DNA of 61,950 bases, the filler included, from Hausera hauseri (lineage: Eukaryota), in assembly GCA_046269625.1 (NCBI GenBank). It is 11 parts of 11 records of this genome, joined end to end, with 100 filler letters (N's around TTAATTAATTAA, not from the genome) between each part and the next. Parts side by side here need not be neighbours in the genome. Positions count along the whole stretch, not along the records: positions 15,171 to 21,111 come from JBJURY010165532.1; 10 more parts are not named here. One strand, written 5' to 3'. The number at the start of each line of letters is the position of its first letter. Within the stretch, counting starts at the first letter, position 1. The notes beneath the pieces are model-generated. The model searched no databases and was not told the origin of the DNA. It saw nothing but the letters and a program-made list of their open reading frames with translations. Position numbers and translations under genes: made by a program. Positions 4,431-55,449 of the stretch are shown here, piece by piece.

Positions 4431-4499
4431 TACGTCCACCATCGAGACCATTTCTCCACCAATATCTTTACAAGACGCGCAGCAATCCAAAAATTCACC

Positions 4500-5010: not shown

Positions 5011-6208
5011 AATCCCAAAACCAGTATCGGTTTTAAACCAAAATCAGCTGCAAACAAACAAACCACGTATACAAGCAAGCAAAACTGTAAGATTCAACAA
5101 ACATCCAAAGTAAAAAACCAACAGGGAACTGAACGCCTTGAAACCCTCCACCTTTAAATATACTTTCACCTGTTCGCGCTTCTGCTTCTCCTTTTGTCGT
5201 GCTTTACCGTTTTTCAACTCAACCACGGGGGTGATATTGTACCCACATGGTTTGCCCCCTGGCCCGTCTGGCCGGACAAGATCGGGGATTTGTTGTTCCC
5301 CGGGCGGCACGAAAGTCAAGGACCGAACGCCTCCCTTTTCCCCGGATTTTGTTTGGCGGTCGTGGTGTGGTGAAAAGTGCTATATAAAGAACAAGCAGAA
5401 TCTCGGATTTCTGAACAGCAGTGGTTCCTCGGGCAGAACTTGTTTTAATAACGTGTAAAACCGGCACTATTCATGTCTATTCTTTTGCGTTTTGTACGAG
5501 AAAGTGACAGGGCAACACACGTAGCAGTCGGTGTGCATGCATTGTGGGCGTTTGTTGTACATGTGCATATATAAATGTGCTATTTTTTTGTTGTTCGTTT
5601 TTTTTCTTGATTGGAACTAATACTGTTTTACTGTGCCAAGAGTTTTGAAATTTAGCTGGGCGAAAATAAATCTTTTAATGCCGAAATTCAAAATGGAGTT
5701 TTCTTTTTGTGAAACCGTATGCAAATTCTTTTTATCTAGCGTTAAGACAATTAATGTCATCAAACACAGAATTGCTTGATCTGAAGACTTTATTTGATAA
5801 AAATAAGTTTTCTGAAATGGGCAAAGCGATCTTTTGCTAATCCCGAATTTTCAAGTAATTTGGATAAATTTATTTCTACCAACTATGGAGATAGTTAGAA
5901 AGGAACTCACGGTGAGGATTTCGAAAGTAAACTAAATGAGATGTGCGGTGAAATTATTCTAAAGTATGATATTGACGAATCAATTATACGGGGTATTAAT
6001 AACAGTAGTTTCTATCAATTCCATATTGAGTTAAATGCTTTGGAAATGAGTATTAAAAAATTAGATTCCCTGGAAGAGTCTTTGAATAAAACAAGTAATA
6101 TGGCTAAAATACTTGGTGTACTAGATTGCAGACGTGTTAGATCAAATGAAGAAATTGCAGAAGAAATAGTAATTTCTACAAAAGTTGATGATATGCAAAT
6201 TGTATCAT

Positions 6209-6308: not shown

Positions 6309-7620
6309 TAACAATGGATCAAGCATTTAAAATCTCAACAGAACAAAGAAAGGAAAAAGTTATTCAGCACATTATAGAATTTGCTAAAAAGGATATTATA
6401 CCAAAGGGGCGACAGTTGATGAAACATTTACACGGACATGGACACAAATATTGCGCCTTAAATGACAAGAGCAATGAGGATATTTTATTTTACGAACGAA
6501 AAAGAAGAATATTAATAGTTATTCCAAAAAATATACGAACCGAAGTGTTAACTTCAGAACATAATTCATATTTAGCTGGACACATGTCATGGAAGAAAAC
6601 ATTAGAAAGAGTAATAAATAAATACTTTTGGCCTAGTATCTATATTGATGTAAAAATTGGGAAAATGCCTGCGAAGTATGTGAAACTAAGCAAAAGAAGA
6701 CGAAAAACTACATGGCCGAATTAGAACCAATTAATGTGCCCGATAGACCTATGCAAGCCATGTCTACGGATATCGTAGGACCTCTCCCTATGACTTACAG
6801 GAACAATAAGTATATCCTAACTTGTATTGATCGATTAACTCATTTTGTCGAGTTAATAGCGTTAGTTGATCAGAAGGCAAAAACCTTAGCAGAAGCCGTA
6901 GTAAGAAGAATTATCTGCCGCTATGGACCCCCAGATCATATACTCACAGATCGAGGAAGAAATTTCACAAGTGAACTTTTCGAGAATATCATTAATATAT
7001 TTGAAACTGAACGATTAACAACCAACTCATATCACCCTCAGTGTAATGGAATGGTCGAACGGATGAATGCTACCATCATACGTATACTGTCAACAGTGGT
7101 AGCGAAAGATCAAAGAGATTGGGACGAGTTTTTAGAATGAACTCAATTCGCCATTAATACCACACCACATCCAGCAACAGGATTTACACCGTTTTTTATG
7201 ATGTATGGACGTGAACCTGTGTTACCCTCAGATTTAGGAATGACGCCTTAAGCAATCAACCCCGAAGATTTAGAACAGAATTTTGCCCAAGTGCTGCAAA
7301 CGCGATTGCAAAAGTGTTGGGAAATCGCCAAAGAATTATTCCTAGAATATCAAGAACAGTTTAAAAACCAATATAACCAGAAAGCGAAACTACATGATAT
7401 AGAACCAGAAAACTGGGTTTATGTACACTATCCAGTAGCCAGGAAAGGCACCTCACTGAAGTTGACCCGCACCTGTATAGGACCGTACAAAGTTACCAGA
7501 GTTACGCCAACCACAGTATACATTAACAAGAATGGAAAGGAAGAAATCGTGTCAGTACAAAGAGTTGTTAAGACCGAGATACGGCCCAATAAACGTTACA
7601 ACCTGCGCCAACGCGAAATA
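6309..7620 (+). mobile_element. Ty3/Gypsy integrase (pseudogenised)
   Basis: EHNSYLAGH..YFWPS Zn finger; DIVGPLP, TDRGRNF, YHPQCNGMVER DDE core; GPY motif (IGPYKV). Frameshift near 6655, stops at 7138 and 7248. Confidence 0.93.
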
Positions 7621-7639
7621 AAAACTTCCTCAATAGTTA

Positions 7640-9000
7640 GTAGACCAATATCATACGTTCAGATAGTTTTAGCATTATCGTTAATTGCTTCTTATATTCC
7701 GACAGCACAAACTAAATGGTGACACGACGAATCTACACTAGGAGATATATATGGAATTAGGAAAAGTGGATCAAGATTGAAACCTATTAAAACGGAAAAG
7801 AAACCAACATTCGAAGATATTCAAAGACAAGGAGATACTAAATTATTACAGTCAATGACAGTTCATTACTACTCGCCTAGCTGCGTATGTGTTAGATTTA
7901 AGACTTGGAAACCACACCACGATTTCGGAAGATTTTAAATTGTCTTACACGATATAACAACACGAGAAGCAAAGAATTGTGATTTTGAACCTGGAGACAA
8001 TACGCAGTGTTGCGACATAGATTTTGTACATACTTATAACCTTACTTATCGCTTGTACTTACCGGACTCATCCGAAATTTATATTGAAATAAAATCACAA
8101 TCTCAATTAGTCATTCCTGCATGGAACAGACATCATGGAATAAAACATGTAGTCGTGCTACGATCCACTGATCCAGATATAAAGCTACTTGACGAAAATA
8201 TCCAAAGAATTTCAGTTAATACGGCAAGACAGTGCATCCAAGTAGATGCCCGGACCGAGATAAGCGTCAGTCAAGAAATTAGTATCACAGTCGAAGCAGC
8301 AATTGGACCAACCCCGAAAATAGGATATTGTTCTATTCGCGCAGGTATACAACACCCGTGTTGCAAACTGCCTGTGAACCGAGAATTTAAAATAAAAATT
8401 GATTTATACGAGGTACGACCTAATAAACCAAGCATACAATTGCGAATCTACCATCCAGAAAATAGAATTTGGAAAATTTCAGTGGGAACTACGACCAAAA
8501 AGTCGACCACTAAGGTTAGTCCCACCATCCGAACTGTTACGACAAACAATATACCCGAAGCAGAGTTTAAAAACATACCTATTAGATTTTCGACGCAGCG
8601 ATATAAGACCTTGTTCTTTGTGGAGAAAGAATAAACTTATGACATACACATAAGTTGTCGGACAACATATAATAACAAAATTGTAATATTATTTAGAAAT
8701 ACTTATCAAACAGAGTGCAATTTATTAAAACCGCAATCTGAATATATAGTACAAGTACATGCAGAGAATAAGCAAATCCAAACAATTACATTACGCACCT
8801 TAGACGAAATTCGTGTAGAGCCACACATACGCAGATAGAGACGATGAAACTACAATGCCAATTACTACTCAAGCACCGATAAGATTAACTGTCTTACCGA
8901 TTGTATCTATTTCAGTAATATCAACGTTTGTTCTTATTATGTTAACTGAAATTTTTCGATTAGTTACCAAAATTGTTATTCTAAGCGTCCTAAAAATTTA
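7640..9000 (+). pseudogene. Env-position ORF: type I membrane protein with signal peptide, Cys-containing ectodomain, FN3-like domain and TM helix
   Basis: Hydrophobic ISYVQIVLALSLIASYIPTA in frame with the integrase tail; CC pairs; Thr-rich linker; LLKPQSEYIVQVHAEN (~8722-8770); TM LTVLPIVSISVISTFVLIML (~8885-8945). Interrupted by stops and a frameshift. Confidence 0.6.
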
Positions 9001-9183
9001 GAATGGGAACTAAGGGAATTGGAAAACCCTGTAGATCCATATAAAAAAATAACCCGACAACTACAGATCAGGTTATTCTGTCATCAAACAAAGAATTGGT
9101 TTTGGTTTAAAGCCATACCTTGTTTTAAGATTAACCTTTATATTTTCTTTTTCAGACTGGTAAGTAACCGAATCGAAAAGAAC

Positions 9184-10381
9184 ATGAGTCGACTTAGCAT
9201 CGACGAATTTTTGCAGCACTACGTAACCGTACGGATCCCAAATTCCAAATCCACCTACAAGCAAATCAACACGGAACTACAAGGGTAAACCTTCATCCAA
9301 TACCAAAAGATTCACGATATCCCCAATAATTTAAAGGGAACAACAGAAGAAGCTAGAGCTGTCTACTTATATGCGTGGAGAGAAGACAAAGAGGCAAGAG
9401 CATACCCTGTACGCCAGATCGCCCAATACAAAACAAACAGGGAACAGAAAAAATATATACACAGCCGACGCAAAAATCCATTATCGTCTGGAAAACCAAA
9501 AATGGGACTTATTCCAAGGAAAACAAAGTCGGTTTAGCACATTTGTATTGAACAGTAGAAATTTCCACGATTACGAGCTGGCATTTCGTATAGCCGCCTT
9601 ACCCGTAAAAGCGATGATGGAAATAACTGAAGAGGAAACAATAGTCATTTCATTGCTGCCCTTAGAGTTCAAACAAAGACCCACCGAAGAAGAACAGGAC
9701 GCACAGCTACACGCATTTAGATTTGTAACCGATGACAGGAATATCACGATTGTCGTAATAAATTATGGAGAAGGAGACGAAGTAAATTCTATCCGAATTG
9801 AAATATCCATACGAGACGTAAACGGGGCCGAAGTCTATTCAAAAGTCATTAACCCGAGAAAGAAGGTACAAGAAACGTATGCAGAAGTAACCGAGATAAA
9901 AAGGGAGCAATAAATCCACGGTAAAGATTCCAGATTAGTGCAAGAGGAAGTAGCACAGTGCCTATGCGGATACGTCTTAGTGGGGTATTAAGTAGAAAGG
10001 ATGACAGAAAAGTTAAACATACCAGGAACTTATATAGCCGAAAGGAGAGAGATAGAGACCCACCCAACAGTAATGGGATAAATGGAAATCAAAGTCAAAG
10101 AGAAAAAGGGTCATCTACTGCCGACCGCGGAAGGCCGATTTAAGTTAATGGTAGAAGCAATGACTGGAGGACAAATCAAAATAAGCCGATTGTTGACCGC
10201 TAGTCAAAGATCCCAGTATCTAAGGGATATAAATGCTGGATTAAACTGGGAACATGAATGGATTTCCAGTAACCCCGGACAGAACCTACGAAGTTTCCCA
10301 AAACTGGAAGGAACCAGTACACAATATAGAAGACTTCCGTCCGTACTCTCCGCCAAGAAATGTCGAGACGACACCGAAATA
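9184..10381 (+). pseudogene. Further ORFs of unknown function downstream of the membrane ORF (including 9371-9913 and 10082 to contig end)
   Basis: Same strand and same A-rich composition as the upstream element; no recognisable motif. Confidence 0.35.
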
Positions 10382-10481: not shown

Positions 10482-10665
10482 ACTCGGAAGGAACTACTGG
10501 CCATGTATTATTTCTGTCAACATTTCAACCATTACCTATACGGGAAACGGTTCACATTAAGAAAGGACAATAAGGCAATAACGTTCATGGTAAAGACAAA
10601 AAAACCGATAACCGCTTCATTTCAGACGTGGATCAACTACCTATCCAGTCTATACATCAACCTGG
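10482..10665 (+). mobile_element. Ty3/Gypsy RNase H fragment
   Basis: TRKELLAMYYFCQHFNHYLYGKRFTLRKDNKAI..WINYL. Confidence 0.85.
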
Positions 10666-11089
10666 TTTTTCTTTCAAACGACGAAGTCTACAAATCAAAT
10701 CATTATCAAACTCATAAAACATTAATCAGCGTTTAACCCAATTACTAAATTTCACTGAACGGACAACGAACGAAGAGCGATGCCCCTTGGAAAAGGCAAA
10801 GTAGTTCAAATATTTAGTTGACTGGATATTGCTAATGTTGAAGACGAGTCATCGACCTTTCCTTGTTGTTTCATAGCAATAAAATTAATGACATTGTTGA
10901 AATGATTCGATATGGGCTCGCCTTCGTTGTGAATAACCAGTAAATAATTCGGATGTTATCGATTAGATTATTCAATCTCGTCACTGACACATCAACAGGG
11001 TAGAGTTGGAAAATTTACAGAAATCTGCTCAGTCACTCGATAAGGAGTTGAGCTTTCCTTGCTACATCTATACATTCGTTTGCCCATAC

Positions 11090-11694
11090 CGATGCGAACT
11101 GGTCTGAACGATTATGCAGCGGTGATGTTATTGTCATTGACGATTTACTTCAAGAAGCCGCGAAACAAACCGATTTCAACAACCTGTTCACGAAGATTGC
11201 ACGGCACCGTGGCGTAACGGTAATTTTCATTACGCAAAACATGTTCCATCATGGCGGACAGCACCAAACAAGAATTATCAACGTACACTATTTGGTGTTA
11301 TTCAAAAACCACCGTGATCAGACTATCATTGATTACGTTGTGCGACAGGCAATTCCTCACAACCGGTCCTACTTGATAGATGCATATTATGATACTACGA
11401 CCGAGCCACACGGATATTTGTTCACTGACTTCATCAAGAATTTCAATCAGAACTGGAACCATGAGGTTTTCCGAACTTCAGCAATCAACACAAAACAATC
11501 GCCCGTCATGTACGTTTTGGAAGATGAGAATGGTGAGGAGATACGTGGTAAATTCTACGAACAGGAACTGCAGGTACTGTCAGAGAAACTGACGTATATC
11601 GTATTCATGCGTCAGAGGTTCGAATAAACAATATTTTGTCAAGTGACACGAATACACCAAACCCAGCTGGATATTTGCATCGCAGATTGAATGA
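11090..11694 (+). pseudogene. A32/FtsK-like packaging ATPase 3' part fused in frame to the integrase C-terminus
   Basis: VIVIDDL Walker B, ARHRGVTVIFITQN, YLVLFKN, HGYLFTDF, then directly IKNFNQNWNHEVF..GKFYEQELQ from the integrase. Confidence 0.88.
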
Positions 11695-13202
11695 TGAACA
11701 CTTACTTGATACTTGATAGTGACAAGTCATCATCACAGAATGACAACAATACAGCTGAACGGTCTACCATGGCGTTGTATCAGCCTCTCGAATTACGCGC
11801 GGGAACCTGGGAAGTGGCTCTGACGGAATTCACATTTACATTTTCACCCAAATCAATACGTGAGAAAAGCGGCATTTACTTTACCCGACTAGAAAAATAC
11901 CCTGTTTCAAGCCGTTTAGAGTTAATCCGAAACTCTAACAAATATATTCTTCGCAATTATTCGCAATACACTTTCGCGGTTTATGCTTATTTTTCAAACT
12001 ACCGTATGAAACTAACACATCGACATCCCATGGAATTGCAGTTTACATCTATAGCTGATACTCAGGCATGGGGTTTTCAATTAGACAATGTACGTTCGAA
12101 AGGTCTACGGCTAGGTGGACATGTTGTAATTGGTGAAAAATACATGGTGTTGCCAAGCAACAGTTGTACTAAGACTCGTCCGACTAATTCAGCCAGTGAA
12201 TACGTTGTAGATTGGGGCAATCCTTTGGATTTATCTGGAAAATGGGAGGTTGCACTGACGGAATTTAACTTTCTCTACATACCGGCGACATTGAAAGGTA
12301 GTATGAATATAACGTACAACAAGACTTTTCTGAAACCAAAACGCATTCTTGTCCTCTGACACTAACTAACAATAAAATAACCGTTGGAAAATCTTCCATT
12401 TGCACGACCAGTACAAATTGCGATTCACACGGCAAGATCGGTGTTTGTATTTTAGGGAAAACTTAAATTTTGTGGAAATTTTGAATTTGCTGTCACATTT
12501 GAGTTCTCTGATATGGCGCAAAAATTCGGATTAAAAAAAAGACTATAAAGGTTAAAATATTAAAAATGAATATACAATTGCTCCAAGATTAAGTCCCATA
12601 CATTACCATACAACGGTGAAATTTACCTATACAGCACAAAGGGTGTCAACGTCATATGTATCGATTGGCGACATGTCTAATGCGAATTTGTAGCATATCA
12701 CTATCAACACTTTTCAAATCAAAAGTACAAGGAGATATTTAAAGTTTTCAAGTCAGATGCAAATGGGTACATTAAATTTGAACTGGTTAAGAACATTGTC
12801 GACATATTATTGGACAAAGCTTTAGCAATGGTATTGGCTTTTCAAAAACAGCGGTTTGAGGCGTGGAATACGTAGACGGCGGCACATATTGCAACACTTA
12901 AACCCAAACTGAAAACGGGACTAAGTCAAATGTACATTTACGTGAACGTCACCGAAACGATTTTGGTGGGTGGAGTACGTATACCGCTACTTCGTGCAAT
13001 TTATCCGGAAAGCAGCAAGTATACTGTTTGCGACAATGTTACTGTCAAGCTCGATAATCCAATGTACCTACCTGTGGCATCTACATCTATAAACAATGTT
13101 GACGTGAATACCAGATATGAGGCCGGCTACTTTATTGAATTTCCATACGGTGCCACAATCAGTCTAACTCTTCATTTCCATCAAAACCAACAACATAATT
13201 GA
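11691..13202 (+). pseudogene. Minor capsid (penton-like) protein; hybrid of paralog 1 N-half and paralog 2
   Basis: Two WEVALTEF motifs; LPSNS..NSASEY start motif; C-terminal YIYVN..VGG..PLLR..NPMYLPV..LTLHF. Confidence 0.85.
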
Positions 13203-13564
13203 TTCTGAAATTGCTTCCATTTACAGTAAACCGTAGCAGGGCGATGAACTGCCGTATTTCGTTGGTAAACAGTATGGCTCTGGATGGTTGCGTACATTGG
13301 CACGTTTAGCATTTCCAGTGTTGAAGCATATTGGCGCCGTGGCAGCAAAAATAGCACAGAACGTACTATATGAAAACAAATCAATTTTACCATAACTGAA
13401 GGAACACGCCTTGTCAGAAATAAAAAGCGCTGCACCGGGAGTCGTTGAATCAATCAAAAAACAATTAGCTGGTAGTGGCTTGATGAGAAAACGTAGACGT
13501 GGTAGATCAGCTAGCTTTTCAACTATAAACAAACGTCGTCGTCGTACGATTTTCGATAAATTGA
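13195..13564 (+). pseudogene. QxGxG-motif basic protein (putative virion core protein), copy A
   Basis: Homologous to 22954-23316 and 46811-47173; ATG>ATA and two in-frame stops. Confidence 0.75.
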
Positions 13565-13583
13565 CTGACGGACAGACATACAA

Positions 13584-14819
13584 ATGGCATCTGCAAAATC
13601 GGAATTGTGCATATTTGACAAGGCGGCGCCACAAGTCTTTATTGACAATGCGGCATTTGAAGAAATCTACCCCATTGATTCGGTTTCAACGGACGATAAC
13701 ATTGACATTCTATTCAACATTATGGCATCGGACAATGAATACCTGGATTTGAACGATACGCTACTCTATGTAAAAGTCATTGTTAAAAAGGACGCGGCAA
13801 CGGTTCTCGCTGCAACAGACACTGTCACACCGGCCAATTACCTTTTCCTCACACTGTTCCAGGAGGCTTCACTGACTCTAAACATCATCAAAATCGAAGG
13901 CAACACCAGTCTATACAGTATCAAAGCACTCATTGAAAGGGCTCTGAATTACAGTACCGACACGAAAAGGACTCATTTGACGAAAATCATCGGATATGAC
14001 GCCACTGCAGCAAACTGTCAGGCATATGTGGCAGAATCAAAAGCACTTACAATGTGTGGATCGCTGTACTTTGACTTTTTAGATCAGCTGAAATACCTAC
14101 TGCCTGGTGTTAAAGCCATGATTCGGCTCAAACGCAGCGACAATGTCTTTTGTTTGAAAACCGCAGTTGCAAATCTCAAGCCCATACTGAAAATTACCGA
14201 GGCACGATTATACGTACGTCGTATAAAGGTAGAACCATCTGCGCTTATGGGTCATCGATTGGGCTTTGAAACTCAAAATGCCTGTTACCCAATACAACGC
14301 ACAGAACTCGTGTTTTATACCATAACCAAAGGTTCAACTACGTTTTACAAAGATGCACTGTTTAGCGACATACGATTGCCGAAATTTGTGCTCGTTACAT
14401 TTCAAACGACTGTTCAACAAACGGGTAGTAATACCATCCATTCGGAAACGTTTACCCATAGCAATGTGAATTACATAAGTTTGGGTCGGAATGCGGATTT
14501 CATTGAGACATACAAACAAGACTTTGAGTCTAATGATTACGTTTGCACATATATGCAATCTATCGTGTGCAACACGGGTTTGCTGAACAAAAATGTCAAC
14601 AATGGCATATCGATGGATTTGTTCAAGTCCACCTATCCATTCTTCACCTTCGCGCTGGCTCCGAACTATGGCGTTGAACAGACTCAACTACCTCAGCAGG
14701 GAAACCTGCGACTGGAGGTTCACTTTGCTAAAACGTTGGCGCAATCTACCGTAATGTACATTTACGGTGTATTTGATGCCGATGTTGAAATAACAAAAAA
14801 CGAAACCGTCATTGTATAA
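13584..14819 (+). CDS. Polinton/adintovirus-type major capsid protein (double jelly-roll), open 411-aa ORF
   Basis: N-terminal KSELCIF..Q..I..IYP..YLDLNDTLLYV; YLLPGV; C-terminal GNLRLEVHF..YGVFD..EI, typical of Polinton MCPs. Lies between the core-like ORF and the protease. Confidence 0.88.
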   Translation: MASAKSELCIFDKAAPQVFIDNAAFEEIYPIDSVSTDDNIDILFNIMASDNEYLDLNDTLLYVKVIVKKDAATVLAATDTVTPANYLFLTLFQEASLTLNIIKIEGNTSLYSIKALIERALNYSTDTKRTHLTKIIGYDATAANCQAYVAESKALTMCGSLYFDFLDQLKYLLPGVKAMIRLKRSDNVFCLKTAVANLKPILKITEARLYVRRIKVEPSALMGHRLGFETQNACYPIQRTELVFYTITKGSTTFYKDALFSDIRLPKFVLVTFQTTVQQTGSNTIHSETFTHSNVNYISLGRNADFIETYKQDFESNDYVCTYMQSIVCNTGLLNKNVNNGISMDLFKSTYPFFTFALAPNYGVEQTQLPQQGNLRLEVHFAKTLAQSTVMYIYGVFDADVEITKNETVIV

Positions 14820-14863
14820 ATAAAATCCGCTTTGTCTCACCTTTTCTTCTTTGTCGTCGTACT

Positions 14864-15070
14864 ATGAAGTTGTTTATTAATATTAATATTATGCTTAATT
14901 CACATTTAGCTCCACCGAGCTCAGTCACTACAGAAAACTGCTCTTGGGCGTGAAATTTCGTGGCCTGTTTCAACTGGATAGTGTGCCACTTGATTTACGA
15001 CAAACCGGCGCCTTTATTGTCAATACACACACTTCATCGTTGCCGGGTGAACATAGGATTGTTGTGTATG
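14864..15070 (+). pseudogene. Adenain-type (C5) cysteine protease, 5' part, truncated by contig end
   Basis: FRGLF..D..AFIVNTHTSSLPGEH(R), against a consensus of NT..PGxHW. Confidence 0.82.
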
Positions 15071-15170: not shown

Positions 15171-16132
15171 CCGAGAGATTACAACTTTATCCCAGACAGA
15201 TGTGTATACAGCAAACATTAACTAGCGCCACCAATTCACTATCCCAATTAATTCTTACCGATCAACCACAGAAATTCGATACTATTGCCATCCATCTCAT
15301 TTATGGCAACTTGACAGTCAATGTCAATTTCGATGATCCTATTCTTGACATTAATCATGAACTGCTTAACAATTCTAGTGTAATTATCACAATTCCTCCT
15401 GCTGAATTATTATCCTTCACTATTTCTTCTTCAAACGATTGTCTATTTGCTGTAGAAATAACCCAACCGAAGCTCATATACACCTATAATGAGAGCTATG
15501 ATCAATTAAATTATATACCGAGACCACTACTACCAATAAACGAATATTCCTCGACACCAGAAGGATTATTTACATCCGACTTAGAATCTCTATCCGTTTT
15601 CGTAGCCTATACATACGTCACCACTCAACCCAGTCTGACAACCATTAACCAAACTATTATTGACATCACTATATTAGACTTCAAAGGCGAGATATTACTA
15701 CAACAGCAAATGTACCCCCGACATAAAGTCGTAGATTGGAGAGCACCTTTTACAGGAATAACTGATAATCTTACCCTAAATAAAATAGACAACGAAGATT
15801 TTCTACCCTACATACAAGATATTTTAAAATATAAATTCATAATAACGACACAACTCGACCTATTATTGTGTTCATTGAAACTGCCTAATACCCTTACTAA
15901 TGGTTTCTTCAATCTTAGTCACCACCCTATCGCTATCAACTTTTCAACAGACCCAATGCTTATAACTCGCCTGAGCGAGCAGTTATTACACACCACTACT
16001 ATTCCCACATATACTTCACCACTAATACAAGCTCACCTACTTAGACAATTGTATAATCTTTTGATGAATTCGTTATACATTGAAGATACTGACAATATGA
16101 ATCATAATATTATTGAGTTAAATCTCAATTAA
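15171..16132 (+). CDS. Retroelement cargo ORF with a degenerate DEDDh (REX4/ISG20-like) exonuclease domain
   Basis: IIDITILDFKGEILLQQQMYPRHKVVDWRAPFTGIT..IQDILKYKFII follows the REX4/ISG20 pattern (xSIVNxxGxxxYDxxxxPxxxVxDYRTxxSGI..ILKGxILV). The ExoI DxE is replaced by AYT. Possibly 5'-incomplete at the contig start. Confidence 0.55.
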
Positions 16133-16148
16133 TTCCATTTATATTTAG

Positions 16149-17422
16149 ATCCACCGGAATGCATGTTCTGCAGAGCTATTATCTCTGAAGTGTACAGATT
16201 AACACCCTGCCTACATATGGTTTGTTTATTTTGTATAGAACAAGTTCGAACACGAGCCCATCCTACACCATATTGCCCTGTGTGCACATATGAAGTCAAA
16301 TATTGTATTCACCATAACGTATACCCATCCGACGCTGATCAATCACTACTAGACGCCCAGACCCTTGATGTCATTGAACCTACGGATCATACTACCTATT
16401 ACTACACTTGGAATATATCCACCCCTTTTTCCATTCCAAACTTTCAATTGCACATGTGTTGCCTATGTCAAAAACCTAATAGAATATCCTATCAATTTAG
16501 CTGTTGTAATGCCGAATACTGTGCTCATTGCTATCAACTAGAATCTCACCATCGATATTTAATCTGTAGCATATGTAACTTTTGCCCCCAGTTCATTTAC
16601 GCATATTTCCACCATCCTAGAAGAGCTCTCCTTACCATTACTAACACTCCAATTCCCCAAATACTTCCGACAAGATACTTCCGGTTAGAACAACAGGCAT
16701 CAGTTAGAATAGAATTCCCAATTCATAAATTTGACCCCTCTATAATAACCAGACTACCACCGATTGTTCTTCAAACACCTTTACCTCACATTAATGTTAT
16801 GACTCTCTTACGACAACCATCTTCAATACCACATCCACGCTATCATCCAGAACAAATTACTAGACCATTACCTGAATTGCCAGTACCAGTACCTACAATA
16901 ATACCCACACCAGCTATTTCTTATAGCCCACCATTACCAATATCTTTACAAGAAGATTGGTTTCCTGTCTACAGCAAATGTCCAATAGACCTTATTTCTG
17001 ACCTAGCCCCTCCTGACTTATGGGCAACACTACAATCTCACTACTATGACCAATTTCCCACCTACGAATGTACTATATGCCTTACCGAAAGAATAACAGT
17101 AGTTCAATTTCAATGCAACCACAAATTATGTGCAACCTGTTTCAACAAACTTCGATCCCAATCTATCAAATCAATCGATCCAGAAGATGCTTTACAGATG
17201 ACCTTTCAAAACGGCATTTCTTGTCCATACTGCCGGCAACCATCAGTATACTACCATTTCTCCTACACCTATGACGACCGAACCCAAAGACTATGCCATT
17301 GGATGAACCCCGTAAACGATGCGACTTTGACAATTAAACCCAGAAACCTCAGTTTCGTCGATGCCAGCACTCAGAGTGATCCGGAGGACCGAATCTTTTT
17401 TCAAAAGGGGGAGAAATGTTGA
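16149..17422 (+). CDS. Triple RING-finger protein with Pro-rich linker (putative E3 ligase)
   Basis: CMFC..CLH..CLFC..CPVC; CCLC..CC..CAHC..CSIC; CTIC..CNH..CATC..CPYC. The first Cys (16160) lies upstream of the annotated ATG. Confidence 0.8.
17403..17422 (+). mobile_element. Polypurine tract and start of a 3' LTR (TGTTG at 17417)
   Basis: GAGGAC..TTTTTTC-AAAAGGGGGAGAAA-TGT, a typical Gypsy 3' end. The LTR's right end could not be located. Confidence 0.72.
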
Positions 17423-18095
17423 GACTCATTAGACTCATTAATTGATCATTAATTGATCTTTAATTTGATCTTGATCTTTAATTGACAATGAGTGACAATA
17501 AGAACGTTAAGACTGACAACAACATTTTAACCTTTTTCCGAAAGCCTTTTGACAATGTGTACTTGTACTTTTATGACTTCAATTCACAACTCTAGAATAC
17601 AAGTATTTTAAAATATGTAAAGCCTCCCTGATAGGCATTTTTATAAACTGTTGTATGTGAATTGTGTGTGACCCTTTTTTCTTTCTATGTCACAAAATCG
17701 ATTATGAAAATATAAATTCGTATTTAAAAATCGACCTTTAAATTAAAATTGAGGTTATCAGTACTTAGACACGAATCTAAAATTCGAAGTACATTGAATT
17801 AAAAAGGTATACATTGAATTAAACAATTAAAGTCCGCCGAAAAGTCCGCCGAATTGACGTCAATAAATGCGTTTGTAAATCAGATTGGCGAAATTAATGT
17901 TCAGTTTTACAAACAAATTAAAAATGATGTCATTGTTTAAATTAAAAATCCAATTATACATACGAATTAAAAAAAATCATAGTTCAAATTGAATTGACGT
18001 AGGCAACTACAAATAAATTTGAAAATTAAATTAGATAATTGACGCGCGTAGGCAACGACAAATTTGAAAATTAAATTAGATAATTGACGCGACGG
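17421..18095 (+). repeat. Short tandem duplications in the putative LTR U3
   Basis: AGACTCATT x2, ATTGATC repeats, TACATTGAATTAAA x2, AAAGTCCGCCGA x2, and a ~45-bp duplication (GTAGGCAAC..AAATTTGAAAATTAAATTAGATAATTGACGCG). TATAAATA near 18109. Confidence 0.7.
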
Positions 18096-21000
18096 CATAG
18101 TGTACAGGTATAAATAGAAGAACCACTTTGTACAAAAAAACTACAAACACACAAAAAATTTATTCAATATTCTGACGCGAAAAGTTCGAAACATTTAAAT
18201 GTTTGGTAAGTTTGTCGAACGACATATATGTACTGACAAATTACCTAGATTTTTAAACGAAGAAAATGAACAATAATAACGGAAACAATGCCTCCTCCGA
18301 TAATCATGATCAAGGAAGTGGTGAGCAAAAAAATTTGTTTTGTATTTGTTTTATTTCTCTTGTAACCTATTGTTGTATTTTTTGAATAAAATTTTTAAAT
18401 TATAAATTGTCAAATAAATATGGTGTGAAAACTGATATCCGTTGATGAGTGGAAGGAGTCAGAGAAACTATGCTCGAACGCGATAATTCGATGTTGGGGA
18501 CGGTGATGACCAACCTTATATATGTAAAATTGATTAAAGGTATCTACCCGAAGGTCATCTCGATGAGCGAAAGAATGTCGTTAAAATTGCGAATAGATCG
18601 AGGAAATTTCCACTCATACCCTCAGAATCGTTTTTCGCCGAATGAAGTTATAACTATACGAAGGTGACTTATTGTTGGTCGAAGTTCACCCTGACGTTCT
18701 GAAATAAATGGAGCCCCATCAGATTAACACCATCCTATTCACTAGGTGTTATATTGCTGAAGACATTAAAGGTTTAAAGGAAAGAGAAGAGTTGGTTAAA
18801 CCATTAGTGATCCAAGAGATGCATTTGGCTTACTGTGCGTGTTTCGATACGATTTTTCTGCGGATTACTATCCTATATGCGACGTTGACGAGCGAGAGTC
18901 TTGATTTCCATTCAAGTTCGGTCTTCCATTCAGTCGATGCTATTTTCAATTAGAAATGGGAATGACCAACTGGAGTGACGTCGAGGTAATCGAGATATAA
19001 GATAATGAAAACGAGAGATGTGAATTACAATTATCGAAATTAGAGGAAACGGGTGAAATTTGTTTAATCCCATTATTTTTAATAAAAGAGTTGAATAATT
19101 ATATTTCAATGACGATTAATTCCCGATATAGTTTCATACTATGTTTTCATTTGTTCAATTTAGAGTTAGATTCATATTGTATATTCTTGATTGTATCGAC
19201 GGATCCATGAATAAAAAGGATTTTGACATGAAACCATGAGTTGAGTTGAATAATTATATGACGATTAATTCTCGATGTAGTTTCATACTATATTTTCATT
19301 ACCCCTGGGAGAGCGGACTTCCTTTATTGATATAAATTAAAAGAAGACAAAGACATGCCCATTGATGAAGATTATTTATATTTTAATATCCAGTCTCCTA
19401 TGATTATTGCGACACGACAGAAGAGCCATCAAATCCCATGTGTAATAATAATTGGTAGAATATACAGAATCAAATTTGAGGAAATATGATAAGTAAACCA
19501 TTATTGTTAGAAAGTAAAAGATTAAAATTTGAAATGTAATGATTGAGATAATAACAATCTGATATTTCTGTATATATGCTTGTCCGTACTTTACTGAGTA
19601 TCAAGAATATGTTTTGCATCCTTGCCTCTAATTGATTTTGGGATTTTATGGTTCATAGTGGGATTCGTAAATAAACGAAATATAAATGGGCCTGTTTTTG
19701 TAGATACATTAAGTAATTAAATTAATATAATCCACATACAGTTATACAGTTCTTATAATGGAAAACCTTTTCGAAAAGGATATAACCCATTTCTGAATTA
19801 CAACTAAGTCAATTGAATGCTCCAGAATATGAATTTATTACAATCAATTTTTCCATAAATCATAAAAGGTTTTTGAAACCTCCTTCCACCATGTACTGCT
19901 TTATGCTCCAAATCAAATGACCATTAAACATCGTTTTCCCTCCATTCTATTCCTCACAGTCTAGAATGACTGAAGGCTTGAGGAGGAGCAGTAATGATGC
20001 AGAAAGCAACAAACAGTCCACTGAGCCAGCAGAATAACATGACTGCCATCCCATGGCCGAAGGATGAACAGGCACCTCCTCTCCTGGTGCACCATGCAGA
20101 CAGCAGGATATGGCACAGCTGCTAAAATAGGAGTTATTCTCTGTCCATTGCATTTATTTTATAGGTCGAGCACAATTCCACCGAGCCTGTTTCTCTTTCT
20201 GTATAATGAAGGGCTGTGATGGTGCTTTATCACTTGAACATCCTCATCCCCAACATTAGCTCAGATATAATGAGGGTTATTCAGAGGACGGGGGCCCTCT
20301 CTCCAGAATGATAAAAGACCCGAGAGTGCGCCGGTGACACGGCATCGGTCATTAGCCTGGCTCACTTTGCCCTTTCATGTATTTCTAAATAAGTGCTTTC
20401 CTGTGGGTTTAACAGACCACCTAATCTGCCTACTTACTCTGCGGGCGAGGAGTGGGAATCCAGAGGTGAATTTCAGATGGCTAAATGTGCTTATCTGTGC
20501 TGTGGCATGTTTAGCCTCTCAGGTGGAAAGTCTGCCACAGGCTTCCAACCCCAGCAGGTTTCACTACTGATATAAATTATGAAAGGATTAATGTATTTCT
20601 GTGACATACTATATGTAGCAGATGTGGAGCAGCAGCTCCCATAGATGTTACAGCTTCAAATCGTGTGAGCATAATTCGTGTGCCTACGTCCACACATTAT
20701 CTACTGGGTAGCGGCAGAGAAACGTGTCGGGTCACGAGGCTCGAGATAGTCTACAATTGAATGGTGGATCACTGCTAGGAGGCTAAGCATCGCAGATATT
20801 GCCTGCAGGACCACCTCCCAGATAACCTCCGGTGAGGCAGGAAAGCTTTCTGTCTCGCCCCCATCTGTCTTTTCCAGAACGACCAAAACAGCCATTTTGG
20901 AGGGTTGTCAACAAGATCTGACTCTCGATGATGTGAGGATCAAAGCTATGACAACACATTTTCAAAACATTGCAAAGGATGATCTCCAAACCAAATATAT

Positions 21001-22679
21001 GAGTACGTCTGAAATTGCAGGGAAAGGATAACACAAATTAAACCATCTGCTGGTGAAAGATATTTGTTACTATATATGAAAAATTAATTTCAGTAGAACT
21101 TCATAGTTGGTNNNNNNNNNNNNNNNNNNNNNNNNNNNNNNNNNNNNNNNNNNNNTTAATTAATTAANNNNNNNNNNNNNNNNNNNNNNNNNNNNNNNNN
21201 NNNNNNNNNNNAAAACCGAAATCTATTTTGTAATGCTAAGTATATATATAATTTAGGAGAACAAAATTAAAAACATACCATTTGTCGTACTATTCATTCA
21301 AATAACGCCATGCTATTTACACACCACTATTTATATCCGACCATCAAAATTAAAACAAAAAATTTTTTGGCGCGAAATTCAAATTTTACACCTACCTAAA
21401 ACCCGTGAAGTACTCGTGCTTGTGTGCGTTCACTTTGTGACTGTATATCCTATCTCCGCCCTATTAATCGTGCGTGTGTGTACCGTTTTTTCTACCCAAT
21501 GACTCATCCCGAACCACTTCTCTTCCTTCCTTCAATGTGGGTCTGTTGTTGTGTCCTCCTTTCTACCTACTCAAAAGCCGTTCAAAGAACATGCTACCGA
21601 TCTTTATTTTGGTGTGTAGAATGGGGGAATGACAAAGTTCTTCGAAATATTGATCAAGTCACCCTTTTTTCCGACAAGTTTCCTCTTAATAACCATCTTC
21701 TCAAATTCTTCATCTCTTTCAGGATATTTCGCAAAGTCGATATTATTAGGTTCACTCAATTTTCTCTTTCTGAAAGGCTTTTGGTACCACAAGCATGGGT
21801 GATTCATGGCACAACTTAATGCAAAATTCCTTATGCGAAACGAGAGATCTCCACCTAAGTAAACGGTATTACCAGTTTTCACAAGAGCTTCATAGGGTTT
21901 CTCGTCAACGTGATCTTTCAAAGCATTATAGGAGTCAGCACCTTGTCAACAGTGCAAAGGGAGAAAATTATAATACGATGAAGGCTTTGAATGGAAAATC
22001 AAGGCAGCCTAGAGACTACGCGTCCATATTTTTATCAAGTGACATCAACAATTTCCTTTCCAACTTACCATTCAAATGAGGTCGTAGAATTCGTTCTTCA
22101 ATGACTCGAGCAGAATAAACCAATACAAATCCATAAACAGTCATGTTTTCGTGTCGAATAAGCTTCTCAAAATTTCTCTTTGTTGCATCAAGAATACTCT
22201 TCGAGGTTATTGGAGAACCGAAAAAATTTTTTGCAAATAAGTTAACTTTTCCAATTCCCATATTAGTCAGTTTCATGACTCTTTTAAAGCCAAGCGGTTT
22301 TTCAGGTGAAGCAGGATTTGAATTGGAAGAGTTGCTTCTTCTGGCTTCATTCATGCTTCGGCATCTTGCAGCCTTGGCAATATGCGCCGTATTTCTTGAT
22401 TGTCTCTTCCATTGTTTTGAGCTCTTGATAGCCAAATATTTGTTAAATGCCCAGTGCAATCGAAATTTGTACTTTAAGAACTACATTGGGCAATATTTTG
22501 TGAAGCCCGGGTTGAGGCTTTTATCAAGTTTAAACTACCAATTGTCAATGGTCCTTTGTCTCTCAGCACGCAACAATACTTAAAGTTGTTTACTAGTACT
22601 TTCTTCAAATTAAGCGTGTTATGTTTTGCCTTTCGTCAACCCATCTAAAAGACATATATGATAATACATAAAAAACATA

Positions 22680-22957
22680 TAATGGTATTTGGCCGGTGTG
22701 ACAGTATCTGTTGCAGCGAGAACCGTTGATGCATTCTTTTTAACAATGCCTTTTACATAGAGTAGCCTATCGTTCAAATCGAGATATTCACTGTTTGATG
22801 CCATAATGTTAAATTGAATGTCTATGTTATTGTCGGTTGAAACCAAATCAACGGAGTAGATTTCTTTAAATGCTGCATTGTCAATAACAACTTGTGGCGC
22901 GCCTTTGTCAAATATACATAATTCAGATTTTGCCGATGAAAATTGTCTGTTTTTCAA
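22680..22957 (-). pseudogene. Major capsid protein 5' fragment
   Basis: Closely similar to the first ~87 aa of the MCP at 13584; homology stops after VTPAKY. Confidence 0.88.
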
Positions 22958-23316
22958 TCGAAAATCGTACGACTACGACGTTTGTTTATAGTTAAAAAGC
23001 TAGCTGATCTACCACGTTTTCGATTTCTCAAGCCACTGCCAGCGAATTGTTTTTTGACTGATTCAAAGACTTCCGGTGTACAGCTTTTTATTTCTGACGA
23101 GGCGTGATTCTTCAGTGATGGTAAAATCGATTTGTTTTCATACAGTTCATCCTGTGCTATTTTTGCTGCCACGGCTCCAATACGCTTCATTACCGGAACT
23201 GCTAAACGTGCTAATGTACGCAACCATCCATAACCATACTGTTTACTAACCAAATACGGCAGTTCATTGCCTTGCTGGGGTTTACTGTAAATGGAAACGA
23301 TTTCAGAATCAATCAT
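22954..23316 (-). CDS. QxGxG-motif basic protein (putative core / membrane-lytic precursor)
   Basis: QQGN, QYGYG followed by amphipathic WLRTLARLAVPVMKRIG; Arg-rich C-terminus ending RTIFD. Confidence 0.7.
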   Translation of the reverse strand: MIDSEIVSIYSKPQQGNELPYLVSKQYGYGWLRTLARLAVPVMKRIGAVAAKIAQDELYENKSILPSLKNHASSEIKSCTPEVFESVKKQFAGSGLRNRKRGRSASFLTINKRRSRTIFD

Positions 23317-23319
23317 GTT

Positions 23320-24368
23320 GTTGGATTCGATGCAAGTAAAGAAATACGGAAATCCAATAAGCTAGTCCGCGTCACATCGGATATTCACTTCAACATTGTT
23401 TATAGATGTAGATGCTACAGGTAGTCACGTTAGATTATCGAGCTTAACAGTGACTTTGTCGCCGACAGAATATTTTCTGCTTTCCGAATAAATTGCACGG
23501 AGTAACAGTACACGTACTCCACCAACCAAAATCGGTTCGGTGACGTTCACGTAAATGTACATTTGATTTAGTCCAGTTATCAGTTTGGGTTTAAGTGTTG
23601 CAACATGTGCCGCCGCCTTCTTCGCCCCAAACCTCTGTTTACAAAACCAAATACCATGGCCAAAGCTTTGTCCAATAAAATGTCGACAATATCCTTAGCC
23701 AGTTCAAATTTATTGTACCTATTTGCATCTGACTCAAAAACTTTAAATATTTCATTGTACTTTTGATTTAAAAAAAACTGTTGACAGAGATGTGCTACAG
23801 ATTCGCAATAGACATAGTCTCCAATGATACGTATGACGTTAACACCCTTTCTATTATATTGGTAAATCTCACGGTTGTCTGGTACTGTACGGGACTTAAT
23901 CTTGGAGCAACTGCATATTCACTTTTGATATCTTTACCTTTGTACTCTGTATTTTTGAACCCAAATTTGTGCGCCATATAACAGGACTCAAAGGTGACAG
24001 TAAATTCAAAATTCGCCATAAAATGTGAGTTTTTACACTAAAATAAAAACACCGATCTTGCCGTTGGAACCGTAATTTTTACTCGTCGTGCAAATGGCCG
24101 ATTCTCCGACTGTTATTTTATTGCCAGTAAGTGTCAAAGGACAAGAATGTGTTTTAAATTCAGTAACAGTCTTGTTGTACGTTATTTTCATACTACCTTT
24201 CAATGTCATAGGTGCGTAGGTAAAGTTAAATTCCGTCAGTGTAACCTCCAATTTTCCAAATAAATCCAAAGAATTGTTCCAATCTACAACGTATTCACTG
24301 GCGGAATTGTTCGGATGAGTCGTCGAACAACTGTTGTTCGGCAACATCATGTAAATACTCATATTCAC
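23320..24368 (-). pseudogene. Minor capsid protein paralog 2
   Basis: YMMLPNNS..NSASEY..LEVTLTEF; homologous to 12140-13202. Confidence 0.83.
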
Positions 24369-24399
24369 AATGATGTCAATGATGATTATGCAGTTTGTT

Positions 24400-25466
24400 T
24401 TTTATCGACGATGACGTAGAAAATGTAACGTTAAATGTGTCGTTGACCCAAAAAGAAATTTAATGGGTTCCCAAATTCAACAGTCATATACATGGAAATA
24501 CTGTGCACAATATTATGAGACAATAATAAGTACATAGATCTGAGCATATTAACGCGAAAATTTTCACCGATGTTTTGTATGTGTCAGAATCCAGTTTCAT
24601 AGAAGTCAGTAGTTGTTTACGTTCTCCACCAACGAGTACGAATTCGGTTAAGTCCGTTAAAATGTTGATTCTATGAAATGCTCCATAGAGTTACGCTTTG
24701 TATTTGGTAACAATAGATCGTCCAACAATGTTTTGATAGAATTCGCGTTTTGAAAAACCCAGATTCCAAGCCAATAATTCATCAAAGGCAAAATATGTAA
24801 CATTGGCACGTAGAATAATAGAAATATAACCATCTGTGTTTATTTCACGTGTTTACGGCTAATGTAGCCGTTTTCTTGACGTACTCACACAATTCCATTT
24901 CCGTTTCCATTAATAAATCATGTTGTATAATATATGAGCGGAAGACGGATTCTGACCTAGTCCACTTTACTATAATATCGGATTCCGCAATGGATGAAAG
25001 GTCCAATTTTTCACCAATTATAACATGGCCACCTAGCCGTAAACGTTTTGAGTGTACATTGACTGATTGAAAACCCCATGCCTGAGCACCAGCTATAGAA
25101 TTAAACTGCATTTCAATGGGTTTCCATGCACTAGTTTTATACGGTAGTTTGAAAAATAAGCACAAACCGAGAAATGTTGTCGCGAATAATTGCGAAGAGT
25201 ATATCGGTTATTGTGTCGGATTGTCGCAAGCGACTTGAAATAGGTTACGTTTCTTGTCGGGTAAAGTAAATACCACTGTTTTGATGTATTATCATTGGTC
25301 AAAATGTAATTGTGAATTCTGTCAAAGCCACTTACCAGGCTCCCTGACGTAAATCGACCGGTTGGTCCAAGTGTATGGTAAACTGTTTAGCGGTATTGTC
25401 ATTGTCGTCGTGTTGTGATAATGATCTGTTACTATCAAGTACCAAGTAAATGCCGCTGCTGCTCAT
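24400..25466 (-). pseudogene. Minor capsid protein paralog 1
   Basis: YLVLDSNRS..NTAKQFTIHLDQPVDLRQGAW; C-terminal VLVGGERKQLL. 3' boundary approximate. Confidence 0.75.
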
Positions 25467-26492
25467 TGAATCTGTGATGCAAAAATCCGACTCGGTGCAG
25501 TGTATCCGTGTCACTTGACGAGATATTGTTTATTCGAACCTTTGCCACGTGAAGGTAGAATTTCCTTAATACGATATATATCGGGTTTCTAGGACAGTAC
25601 TTGCAGTTCATGTTCGTAGAATTTACTGTGTATTTCCTCACCGTTTTTATTTTCTAAAACGTACATGACAGATGTTTGTTTTGTGTTGATTGTCGAAATG
25701 TGGAAAACCTCATCGCGCCAGTTCTGATTGAAATTCTTAATGAATGGCGTCGTACTTATTTCGATATACGTACGTAAGCACCAATTTTATATTTTGAGCG
25801 TTTAATTGAATCTCGTTGTGTTTGGTTTTGATAAAGCCACACATCCAAATCATCTATTTCAACCGGCGCATTCTGTTTATTCCACGGTGTGTCAAATGAT
25901 TGTATGCATTAATAATATCCGGTAGTACACCTACCAAGCGTTTGTTGCTTTGCTTCGTAAAGAATTTGTTTAGGCGACCGCGCAATGTTCGATTAAATCG
26001 TTCAACGAGTGCAGCATTGTATTGGGAAGACACCGAGTAGTGGTTAACTCCGAACCTTTTCAAGACCGCTGCAACGTAAACATTGTAGAATTCCTTACCT
26101 AAATCCGTTTGTAAATGCTTCGGCTGTTGTTGTTGTTGTATCAGTGTCTGAACAGCGTCAGCGATCTCTTTACCGGATTTAGATTTCACGGCAATTGCAC
26201 GTGCAAAACGACTAAACATATCAACGCATGTCAGCACGTACCGGCACCCATCGTTCATACTGGTGTACGGAATTATTTCCATCAGATCCATTTGCCATAC
26301 ATTATTTACACCGGCTGCACGGTATGCACGAGTTGGAAACTGCCTTCTTATCGGTTTGTTTAGGCTGTATGCTAACTGTTTCCCGAGCCAACGTTGGGTC
26401 TGTTGCCGAGTCCGTTTGACAGTCTTTGCCACTTTGTCGACGCCAGTATAGCCGAAGGGATGATGCAGGTCGAACCACACATCGTCCATCAT
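25463..26492 (-). pseudogene. Polinton DDE (rve) integrase with chromo-like C-terminus
   Basis: WLGKQLAYSLNKP, WQMDL, CVDMFSRF, LQTDLGKEF, VERFNRTL, YN..HRGI; frameshifted tail with KFYEHELQ..YLVK*HGY. Confidence 0.92.
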
Positions 26493-26621
26493 TGCCGTCG
26501 ATGGTGTCGGTTTTGCTCGCATTATAACAATTAGAACGAAACGTAAATGAAAGATTAGGTGAACTGGGACAGAAAGATGAAAACCATTCACCCATATCGC
26601 CGAATCATCATATACTTATCG

Positions 26622-26960
26622 TCACTGTTTATACTGTGCTGTTGAAGAACCAGTGAGTCCACCCAGTAATGATGTGGCAATCGGTAGAATTACACCAGGG
26701 AACGCGCCATCTTGCTGGTACATAACCACTCGTTTCAGTCGTTTACTACGGGTGTTGGCAAGGCAAATGAGTCGTTTTCGATACTTTAGTAAATTCCGCT
26801 TTCCACTACCAATGTCAACGTGACCCACAAAAATATTGTATAAAATCTCCATCAAATCGTCTACTACAAACTGTGAAAATGATCGCAGCATGTTTTGCTT
26901 ATGTCTCGTAGGTTTCTTGAGCAATGCAATAAAGTACGGCTGACCACGTTTATATCGCAT
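26622..26960 (-). CDS. Conserved small Polinton protein with a C-terminal amphipathic peptide after Q-x-x-G-(G/A)
   Basis: LMEILYNI..GHV..LLKYRKRL..L..YQQDGAFPGVILPIATSLLGGL; open in copies B and C. Confidence 0.7.
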   Translation of the reverse strand: MRYKRGQPYFIALLKKPTRHKQNMLRSFSQFVVDDLMEILYNIFVGHVDIGSGKRNLLKYRKRLICLANTRSKRLKRVVMYQQDGAFPGVILPIATSLLGGLTGSSTAQYKQ

Positions 26961-26974
26961 TTTTGGACGTATTT

Positions 26975-27176
26975 ATGTTGATGAGATGTAGTTGTTTGTA
27001 ACCGTTGCCACTGTGACAGCAATTTGCGTCTAGCTGCTGCTGTTGTTGTTCGACGAAACACAGAATTGATTAATCGCTTAACTGTAGCAGTGATTCTTTT
27101 TGATACACGTTTTTTGCCACCGGACACCCGCTTGGTAGGTTTACGTTTAACAATTGTTTTTCGGAAATTCTTCATT
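26975..27176 (-). CDS. Small Lys/Arg-rich ORF (putative DNA-condensing protein)
   Basis: MKNFRKTIVKRKPTKRVSGGKKRVSKR..; conserved in copy C (50704-50877). 3' end uncertain. Confidence 0.45.
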
Positions 27177-27188
27177 TTTTTATCATAA

Positions 27189-27831
27189 TCATGTCGTCGA
27201 TTTTCGAATTTGTTTATAGACACATACACCACCTTTCTGATTGAAAATGTCTGTTCGTACACGCATGTCATCGGGACACTGTTGCGTAAAGTCGATGAAC
27301 AAGTATCCGTGTGGTTCGGTCGTAGCATCATGATATGCATCTATCAAGTAGGCTCGATTGTGAGGAAATGCTTGTCGTGCAACATAATCAATGATAGTCT
27401 GATCACGGGGATTTTTGAACAACACCAAATAGTGTACGTTTAGATTTCTTGTTTGATGCTGTCCGCCCTGATGGAACATGTTTTGCGTAACGAAAATAAC
27501 AGTCACACCACGATGTCGTGCAATCTTTGTGAACAGATTACTGAAGTCGGTTTGTTTTGTTGCCTCTTGAAATCAATCGTAAATGACAATAACGTCACCG
27601 TTTTGTAACGTTTCAAACCAATTCTCATCGAACCCATTTTAATTTACAAAATTCCCGATGTATCAAACCGGACTCACCATCATCACCAACACCCTGATGC
27701 CAATATATGTGATTGTACCGCAGTGAATGGAACATGTCACAGTAGTTCTGCAATAGTTTACACACAAAGTGCGTTTTGCCACTTCCACCGGGGTTCACAA
27801 CCTGGAAAATTGAATCATTCTGCAACTTCAT
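27189..27831 (-). pseudogene. A32/FtsK-like packaging ATPase
   Basis: Walker A PGGSGKT, damaged Walker B, RHRGVTVIFVTQN, YLVLFKNPRD, HGYLFIDF. Confidence 0.92.
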
Positions 27832-27866
27832 CTAAATAATAACACAACCTTTCCTCACATGATTTG

Positions 27867-27896
27867 TTTATAATCGTGTTACACACATATAAATAG
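27867..27896. promoter_or_regulatory. Back-to-back TATA boxes in the 90-bp spacer between the ATPase and the TBP-like gene
   Basis: TATAAA on the - strand (27867-27872) and TATAAATAG on the + strand (27888-27896), each ~25-35 bp upstream of the respective ATG. Confidence 0.45.
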
Positions 27897-27921
27897 CTAT
27901 AGTTTAAACACTGTTTCCCTA

Positions 27922-55447: not shown

Positions 55448-55449
55448 GC

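Follow-up and report, generated by a model that had tools for sequence, protein, structure and literature searches.

A pseudo-exonuclease and RING-finger gene pair at the 3′ end of a probable Gypsy-type element of Hausera hauseri

What use would a retroelement have for a nuclease that has lost its catalytic residues and for the RING-finger protein encoded directly behind it? The question is raised by a locus of Hausera hauseri at the start of contig 15171–21111, one of the 11 separate contigs, joined by N linkers, that make up the 61,950 nucleotides analysed here (the window). The contig begins inside the first of the two genes, so nothing upstream of 15171 is their true neighbour; the Polinton-like sequence upstream of 15071 was ruled out as such because it belongs to a separate contig behind a linker. 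A sequence-only reading had proposed that the locus is the 3′ cargo of an LTR retroelement, composed of a pseudo-exonuclease and a triple-RING protein that runs into the polypurine tract. We find that the cassette is real, conserved and undescribed in this combination, and that it lies within the known class of LTR-retrotransposon accessory ORFs.

Two genes in one reading frame

The estimate of about 2.2 kb of coding sequence was correct: positions 15173–17422 (+ strand) form a single 750-codon frame whose only internal stop is at 16130–16132, and the longest ORF is 429 aa compared with 169 aa in 300 shuffles. The frame does not represent one interrupted gene. Because all three close homologues of the first gene (349–357 aa, 60–68% identity) end at the same stop, we regard the stop as part of the design, separating ORF1 (15173–16132, +) from ORF2 (16133–17422, +). 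ORF1 is truncated at its 5′ end, where the contig starts (15171), and is ∼39 codons shorter than its homologues; those of ORF2 form two clusters (58–64% identity). The ORF1 homologue P0001 and the ORF2 homologue P0004 come from contigs of the same size (19,467 bases), as do P0002 and P0005 (3,286 bases), and from this equality we infer that the two genes adjoin there too. No related locus with DNA was found in IMG/VR, the JGI metagenomes, GTDB or the phage collections.

As a single sequence, ORF1 gave no match in Pfam or the PDB. All four PDB matches of a profile built from the four-member ORF1 clade are DEDDh exonucleases, though weak ones (E 0.049–0.4), and homologue P0001 matches PF00929 (E 0.0048). 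ORF1 aligns with 11 proteins of a wider family over 316 columns (hhalign probability 99.5%), and the profile of these 11 proteins matches ISG20L2 at 4e-24. Profile and alignment place a REX4/ISG20-type DEDDh exonuclease domain at 15596–16057 (+), in which homology to the ExoI–III core (REX4/ISG20, PF00929) is present. The fold family had thus been named correctly, but the loss is not confined to the acidic residues of ExoI: none of the five catalytic residues (four acidic metal ligands and the general-base histidine) is kept in any of the four clade members, which have A/T, N/T, L, T/S and Q at these positions. The dead domain is still 66–75% identical within the clade. Judged by its sequence, ORF1 is a pseudo-enzyme relative of the DEDDh exonucleases and not an active member. 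By profile it belongs to the same fold family as the exoribonucleases REX4, ISG20 and ISG20L2 (PF00929; PDB 7yw5, 1wlj), and it differs from them in its five replaced residues, in an extra N-terminal domain and in being borne on a repeat.

An N-terminal domain was not part of the sequence-only reading. Its limits (approximately 15173–15487, +) follow from family homology and a model of the family member P0008, and its fold is predicted to be that of a cupin. Against a profile made from 11 N-termini of the family, that of ORF1 scores 28 bits (shuffles ≤ 6.4). Residues 25–140 of the P0008 Atlas model reach TM scores of 0.60–0.71 (by query) with ten clusters, mostly cupins or cupin-fold enzymes, in a comparison where both structures are predicted models (whole-model pLDDT 0.57). 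No Pfam cupin match was obtained in 23 rows; two AlphaFold models were too poor (pLDDT 38.9 and 28.5), and Foldseek on the first returned nothing at E 0.001. In our literature search we found no description of a cupin and DEDDh pairing for retrotransposons.

A search of 1.84 billion representatives returned 25 proteins, of which 17 were kept as family-like. The excluded proteins were P0013 (a spurious match through SprB repeats), P0031 (DnaQ-like), P0002 (the ORF1 clade's own member) and P0009, P0016, P0025, P0027 and P0030, cellular REX4-like proteins by our reading. All members of sufficient length share the N-terminal motif and domain before the exonuclease. The names of ten family proteins are uninformative (nine unnamed, one 'hypothetical protein'). 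Among 21 aligned rows all five catalytic residues are intact in 11 and none in the four of the ORF1 clade; five rows lack the first Asp, and one fragment has ExoI intact. Several members outside the clade have also lost ExoI, with no known RING partner. The exonuclease tree, in which 3 of 23 inner branches are starred, supports only the ORF1 clade, on a long branch, and gives neither a donor nor a count of independent losses. P0008–P0034 delineate a wide family without a name, represented in ENA, JGI and Logan data, that joins a cupin-like domain to a REX4-type exonuclease; some members are intact and others dead, and several lie on 14–25 kb contigs.

ORF2, from its frame and domain matches, is arranged as RING, Cys cluster, Pro-rich linker and RING. 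Two of the three RINGs originally proposed are C3HC4 fingers: RING1 (16160–16285, +) and RING3 (17069–17233, +, with a long second loop) coincide with the two stretches matched by PF00097 (27.7 bits, cut-off 21) and both have the pattern C-x2-C ... C-x-H-x2-C-x2-C ... C-x2-C. The middle finger (16457–16585, +) is a 10-Cys cluster whose spacing is RING-like by eye, but it has no histidine at ligand 4, has no PDB match and is absent from the Pfam stretches. It is nevertheless the most conserved block of ORF2 (67–76% identity), and all ten cysteines are kept in the four long sequences. The Pro-rich linker had been recognized correctly (16613–17047, +; 19.3% Pro) and is 58–67% identical among the homologues. 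Profile and structure searches of both ORFs, which the sequence-only reading had recommended, lead to DEDDh exonucleases for ORF1 and to two RINGs for ORF2, and leave the middle cluster unmatched. Given what is known of the RING family, ORF2 probably has E3 ligase activity.

The repeat and its 3′ boundary

The last codons of ORF2 overlap a tract of 14 purines (17403–17416, +) that is followed by TG at 17417, and the three full-length homologue proteins share the ending GEKC. Tract and TG are meaningful because the repeat family changes sequence at that point: 52 contigs of run X1, three of X2 and one of X3 (three of the four runs) diverge from the window's sequence after 17420, and 17417 is the exact first position of one X1 contig. 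The stretch that starts with this TG (17417–19802, +), at the family's point of divergence, is a candidate 3′ LTR with its right end at about 19789–19802; the match to X1 record 7 stops at 19794. The purine tract and TG are thus where they had been reported, but the LTR that they would border keeps the status of a candidate. The LTR-like region also contains, at 18420–19500, short open frames and repeated stretches that may be the remains of a captured gene.

The 5.9-kb contig was matched by 10,309 contigs in X1 and by 1,499, 242 and 147 in the other runs (4/4 runs, from four studies), mostly 80–99% alike. These are many variant copies, although contig counts do not themselves imply dispersal. 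Summed contig depth in X1, which is no copy number, is 9,500–39,000 over the ORFs, 46–165 over 17559–19747 and 0–2.7 over 19947–20543; the contig itself may derive from the X1 sample. The pattern fits copies with a common cassette but differing LTRs, of which the window apparently has a rarer one of ∼2.4 kb, unlike that of most copies. A nested insertion into the LTR is unsupported, as the start of the commoner LTR type gave only three weak matches, none of them on this contig. The flank at 19950–21111 is more GC-rich, matches long X4 and X2 contigs at ∼90% and is barely covered in X1; it may be an insertion site or a chimeric join.

Both genes are kept across copies that are 58–68% identical in protein. 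Of 33 coding differences among copies, 25 are silent, all at third positions (34% expected for transitions, p ∼1e-6); the 33 were those with the best support among more than 800 rows, not drawn at random, and the figure is no dN/dS. At the sequence level this is a strong hint that ORF1 and ORF2 are under selection.

With the ORF1-family profile, two more members, both distant, are detected on other contigs of the window at 84.6 and 47.8 bits (20 shuffles reach at most 5.1), each in a different element. The first, on contig 6309–10381 (6311–10200, +), has a Gypsy-type integrase with zinc finger, core and C-terminal part (PF17921, PF00665; the nearest solved integrases are those of foamy virus and Ty3), a broken env-like ORF, an acceptor-like site ending at 9155 and a broken ORF1-family gene from ∼9184. 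The env-like ORF, which occupies the env position, has a hydrophobic start near 7660–7720 and a transmembrane stretch near 8885–8950 and gave no env match in Pfam. The acceptor-like site is followed, after four bases, by a donor-like one. The second element, on contig 28662–32679 (28663–31024, +), contains the end of an ORF1-family gene (28663–29235), a non-coding LTR-like stretch ending with CA at 30032, a primer-site-like TGG three bases on at 30036, a broken gag-like ORF (a weak match, E 0.024) and a CCHC knuckle (E 0.0008). Its layout is likely that of an element whose two LTRs were collapsed in assembly. A further ∼1.6 kb of broken coding sequence at 31323–32677, with no Pfam match, suggests a long cargo-bearing polyprotein. 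On this sequence evidence the ORF1 family is 3′ cargo of Gypsy-type elements in both contexts that can be read. No RING gene follows the family member at 28663, which suggests that ORF2 was added in the present lineage and also counts against cooperation between ORF1 and ORF2.

The proposal of LTR-element cargo is thus strengthened by the many variant copies, by the boundary at purine tract and TG and by the two relatives in Gypsy-type contexts, but the support is indirect and includes no link to a pol gene of its own. The region is not single-copy and its ORFs do not look like host genes; however, contig 15171–21111 has no second LTR, primer site, target-site duplication, gag or pol, and no second copy of the LTR was found in the window. 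From the boundary and the two relatives we consider an LTR/Gypsy identity highly probable. Two loci matched by the purine-tract pattern encode no relative and were dropped. A decayed Gypsy element at 1–6208 (protease, RT, RNase H, integrase) was rejected as the 5′ half since it has no DNA similarity to contig 15171–21111; it has the same C-rich strand bias as the ORF1/ORF2 region. As for the other contigs, 10482–15070, 21212–28561, 42888–52960 and 53061–57060 are decayed Polinton-like copies, 80–90% alike (rve integrase; polB fragment at 54101–54724), and 57317–61411 has a 1364-aa BEL/Pao-type open frame (DUF1759, protease, integrase zinc finger, DUF5641) with no Pfam reverse transcriptase match. 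Host-type genes are represented in 40950–41717 and 33306–33806 by an uninterrupted, diverged Brr2/SNRNP200 fragment, with human and nematode scores above fungal ones that make an animal source likely, and by a cofilin/ADF domain.

Expression of the RING gene

The first methionine of ORF2 sits between the first two cysteines of RING1, in the window as in P0004 (P0005 was called from a later methionine), and a full RING1 therefore needs either splicing or readthrough. A candidate intron 3′ end is predicted at 16126–16148 (+), where a branch-like site overlapping the ORF1 stop is followed by a pyrimidine tract and an AG at 16148, past the stop but ahead of the first RING cysteine. With 9/12 pyrimidines this acceptor-like site is in the top seven, though not first, of the 55 YAG sites that the two ORFs contain. 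A candidate leader for subgenomic messages is predicted in the LTR-like region (18109–18326, +) and consists of a TATA-like box (18109–18116), a 43-nt intron-like stretch (18206–18248), an ATG at 18266 and a donor-like site at 18321. The frame from this ATG is open to the donor-like site and has the phase needed by the acceptor at 16148; two later leader ATGs are in another phase, and the first ATG (18199) is changed in those X1 and X2 contigs that span it. These signals lead us to favour, by a modest degree, a model where ORF2 would be translated from an env-style spliced mRNA whose start codon is supplied by the 5′ LTR leader.

If the conserved stop were instead read through, ORF1 and ORF2 would be made as one protein with no splicing; this alternative concerns expression only and would fit any function. 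The common frame, the single stop between the genes and the lack of a methionine before RING1 are in its favour. Against it, no fused form of 626–2000 aa was found, which is weak evidence, and P0001 and P0004 alone cannot reveal the frame in the homologues. The nine codons behind the stop also have the make-up of a pyrimidine tract with AG, a strong acceptor-like site (11/12 pyrimidines) closely precedes the family gene at 9184, and the rotifer ORF3 genes discussed below are described as spliced units (PMC5408684). We judge readthrough rather unlikely, and the spliced message is the route that we prefer.

Precedents and possible function

That Gypsy elements have nothing or env at this 3′ position, as the sequence-only reading assumed, is an overstatement, since exonuclease and other ORF3 genes have been published (PMC5408684). 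The Juno and Vesta LTR retrotransposons of bdelloid rotifers encode a DEDDy-type exonuclease as ORF3 (Rodriguez, Kenefick and Arkhipova, 2017; PMC5408684), a finding also cited in PMC6338049 and PMC5718144. As presented in the sections of that paper available to us, the rotifer ORF3 resembles ORF1 in being a DnaQ-like 3′–5′ exonuclease gene at the env position of an animal LTR retrotransposon, and it is a separate spliced unit, RNase D-like, with intact catalytic residues. ORF1 differs from it in belonging to a REX4/ISG20-like DEDDh family with a predicted cupin, in being dead throughout its clade and in having a RING gene behind it; the word 'ring' does not occur in the main text of PMC5408684. 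The giant Gypsy elements of planarians, Burro and GYPSM1 (Arkhipova and Yushenova, 2019; PMC6431247), are likewise high-copy animal elements whose cargo is linked with ubiquitination and host control. According to the portions of the Burro paper covered, this cargo (AIR1, MATH, BIR, BCL2, ubiquitin-like, ankyrin) is located for the most part inside the polyprotein or upstream, and neither an exonuclease nor a stand-alone 3′ multi-RING gene is listed. Orchid Gypsy elements have an extra AlkB/2-ODD ORF (PMC9289625), again a captured and retained RNA-acting gene in a large Gypsy element that was proposed to help against host control; from the part of the report at hand, they differ in being plant elements and in encoding an active demethylase, with no nuclease fold and no RING. 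In the excerpts of a review of plant extra ORFs that we consulted (PMC7264820), RING, zinc, exonuclease and ubiquitin are not mentioned.

Inactive derivatives of DEDD nucleases do occur among host proteins. Maelstrom and EXD1 function in piRNA biogenesis, where the nuclease fold serves as a binder of RNA or protein (as summarized in passages of PMC5408684), the role that we would assign to ORF1. They are, in contrast, host silencing factors of other DEDD branches, and we found no sequence link to ORF1. Extra exonuclease genes and ubiquitin-related cargo are thus known already, from rotifers and Burro respectively, and their combination did not turn up in the literature that we searched. Among the texts accessible to us we found no animal LTR retrotransposon with a DEDDh or cupin-exonuclease ORF, or with a stand-alone multi-RING ORF, at its 3′ end; supplements, Repbase-type databases and most subscription papers were outside the scope of this search. 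To our knowledge, few transposon-encoded counter-defence proteins have been described in animals. A survey of literature on this subject, by title, returned none of this kind.

We propose that the locus is a 3′ accessory cassette of a many-copy animal Gypsy-type element, in which the dead nuclease binds RNA or host partners and the RINGs ubiquitinate host defence proteins; taken as a whole, this proposal stands at about even chances. The ancestral gene of the ORF1 family would have encoded an active exonuclease and been carried alone; in the ORF1 lineage the fold would have been kept as a binder and the RING gene gained. The dead nuclease would likely still bind RNA ends, or partners of host RNA-processing enzymes, and the RING protein of ORF2 would likely recruit E2 enzymes and substrates. 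By ubiquitinating host defence proteins the pair would then act as a counter-defence cassette. That its target lies in host defence is a supposition we hold with slightly less assurance than the proposal as a whole, and the putative combination of E3 ligase activity with an anti-silencing role, as suggested for the locus from the outset, is plausible. A more specific version, in which the cassette is a targeted-degradation tool, is speculative and on balance improbable: the dead nuclease and cupin would recognize RNA or silencing complexes and the multi-finger ligase would destroy them, making the cassette a counterpart of viral accessory ligases that arose from a wide element-borne family losing catalysis several times.

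The main rival is that the cassette serves the element's own cycle, the dead nuclease capping or chaperoning the 3′ end of RNA or cDNA and the RINGs ubiquitinating Gag or Pol in assembly, traffic or turnover. As far as we know, most LTR retrotransposons replicate without such genes, and a multi-finger protein with a long Pro-rich linker is more like a viral substrate-recruiting ligase than a replication factor. The family members with an intact DEDDh site (11 of the 21 rows) do fit a processing of element nucleic acid, as was proposed for the DEDDy ORF3 of rotifers in the pages consulted of PMC5408684. We regard this explanation as unlikely, if only a little more so than the degradation tool. 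Less credible again, and in our opinion improbable, is that the RING gene acts on host cell fate or signalling, such as apoptosis or stem-cell state, to the benefit of the element, similar to the BIR, BCL2 and MATH cargo of Burro and unrelated to ORF1. Burro does have ubiquitination- and apoptosis-related domains (available text of PMC6431247), relatives of ORF1 occur with no RING gene, and the best PDB matches of RING3 are to TRAF6 (E 0.009); this match, however, is weak and generic for RINGs, and the Pfam search of ORF2 detected no BIR, MATH or BCL2 domain. Finally, we consider it very improbable that these are genes of a Polinton, an endogenous DNA virus or a host gene family, with purine tract and TG met by chance: several further contigs in the window are taken up by Polinton-like fragments, homologues lie on 14–25 kb contigs and at least 13 purines precede a TG nine times in the window (both strands), but the family diverges at that very TG, both relatives of ORF1 in the window are in LTR-retrotransposon contexts, and ORF1 is one long open frame covered by thousands of variant contigs.

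The counter-defence proposal concerns a cassette that selection appears to maintain in a very abundant element, and whose parts are simple to assay. Active and dead versions of the exonuclease in the same position offer a natural series from replication helper to binder or decoy. If the proposal is true, the element would have gained a tool to bind RNA and to mark host proteins for removal.
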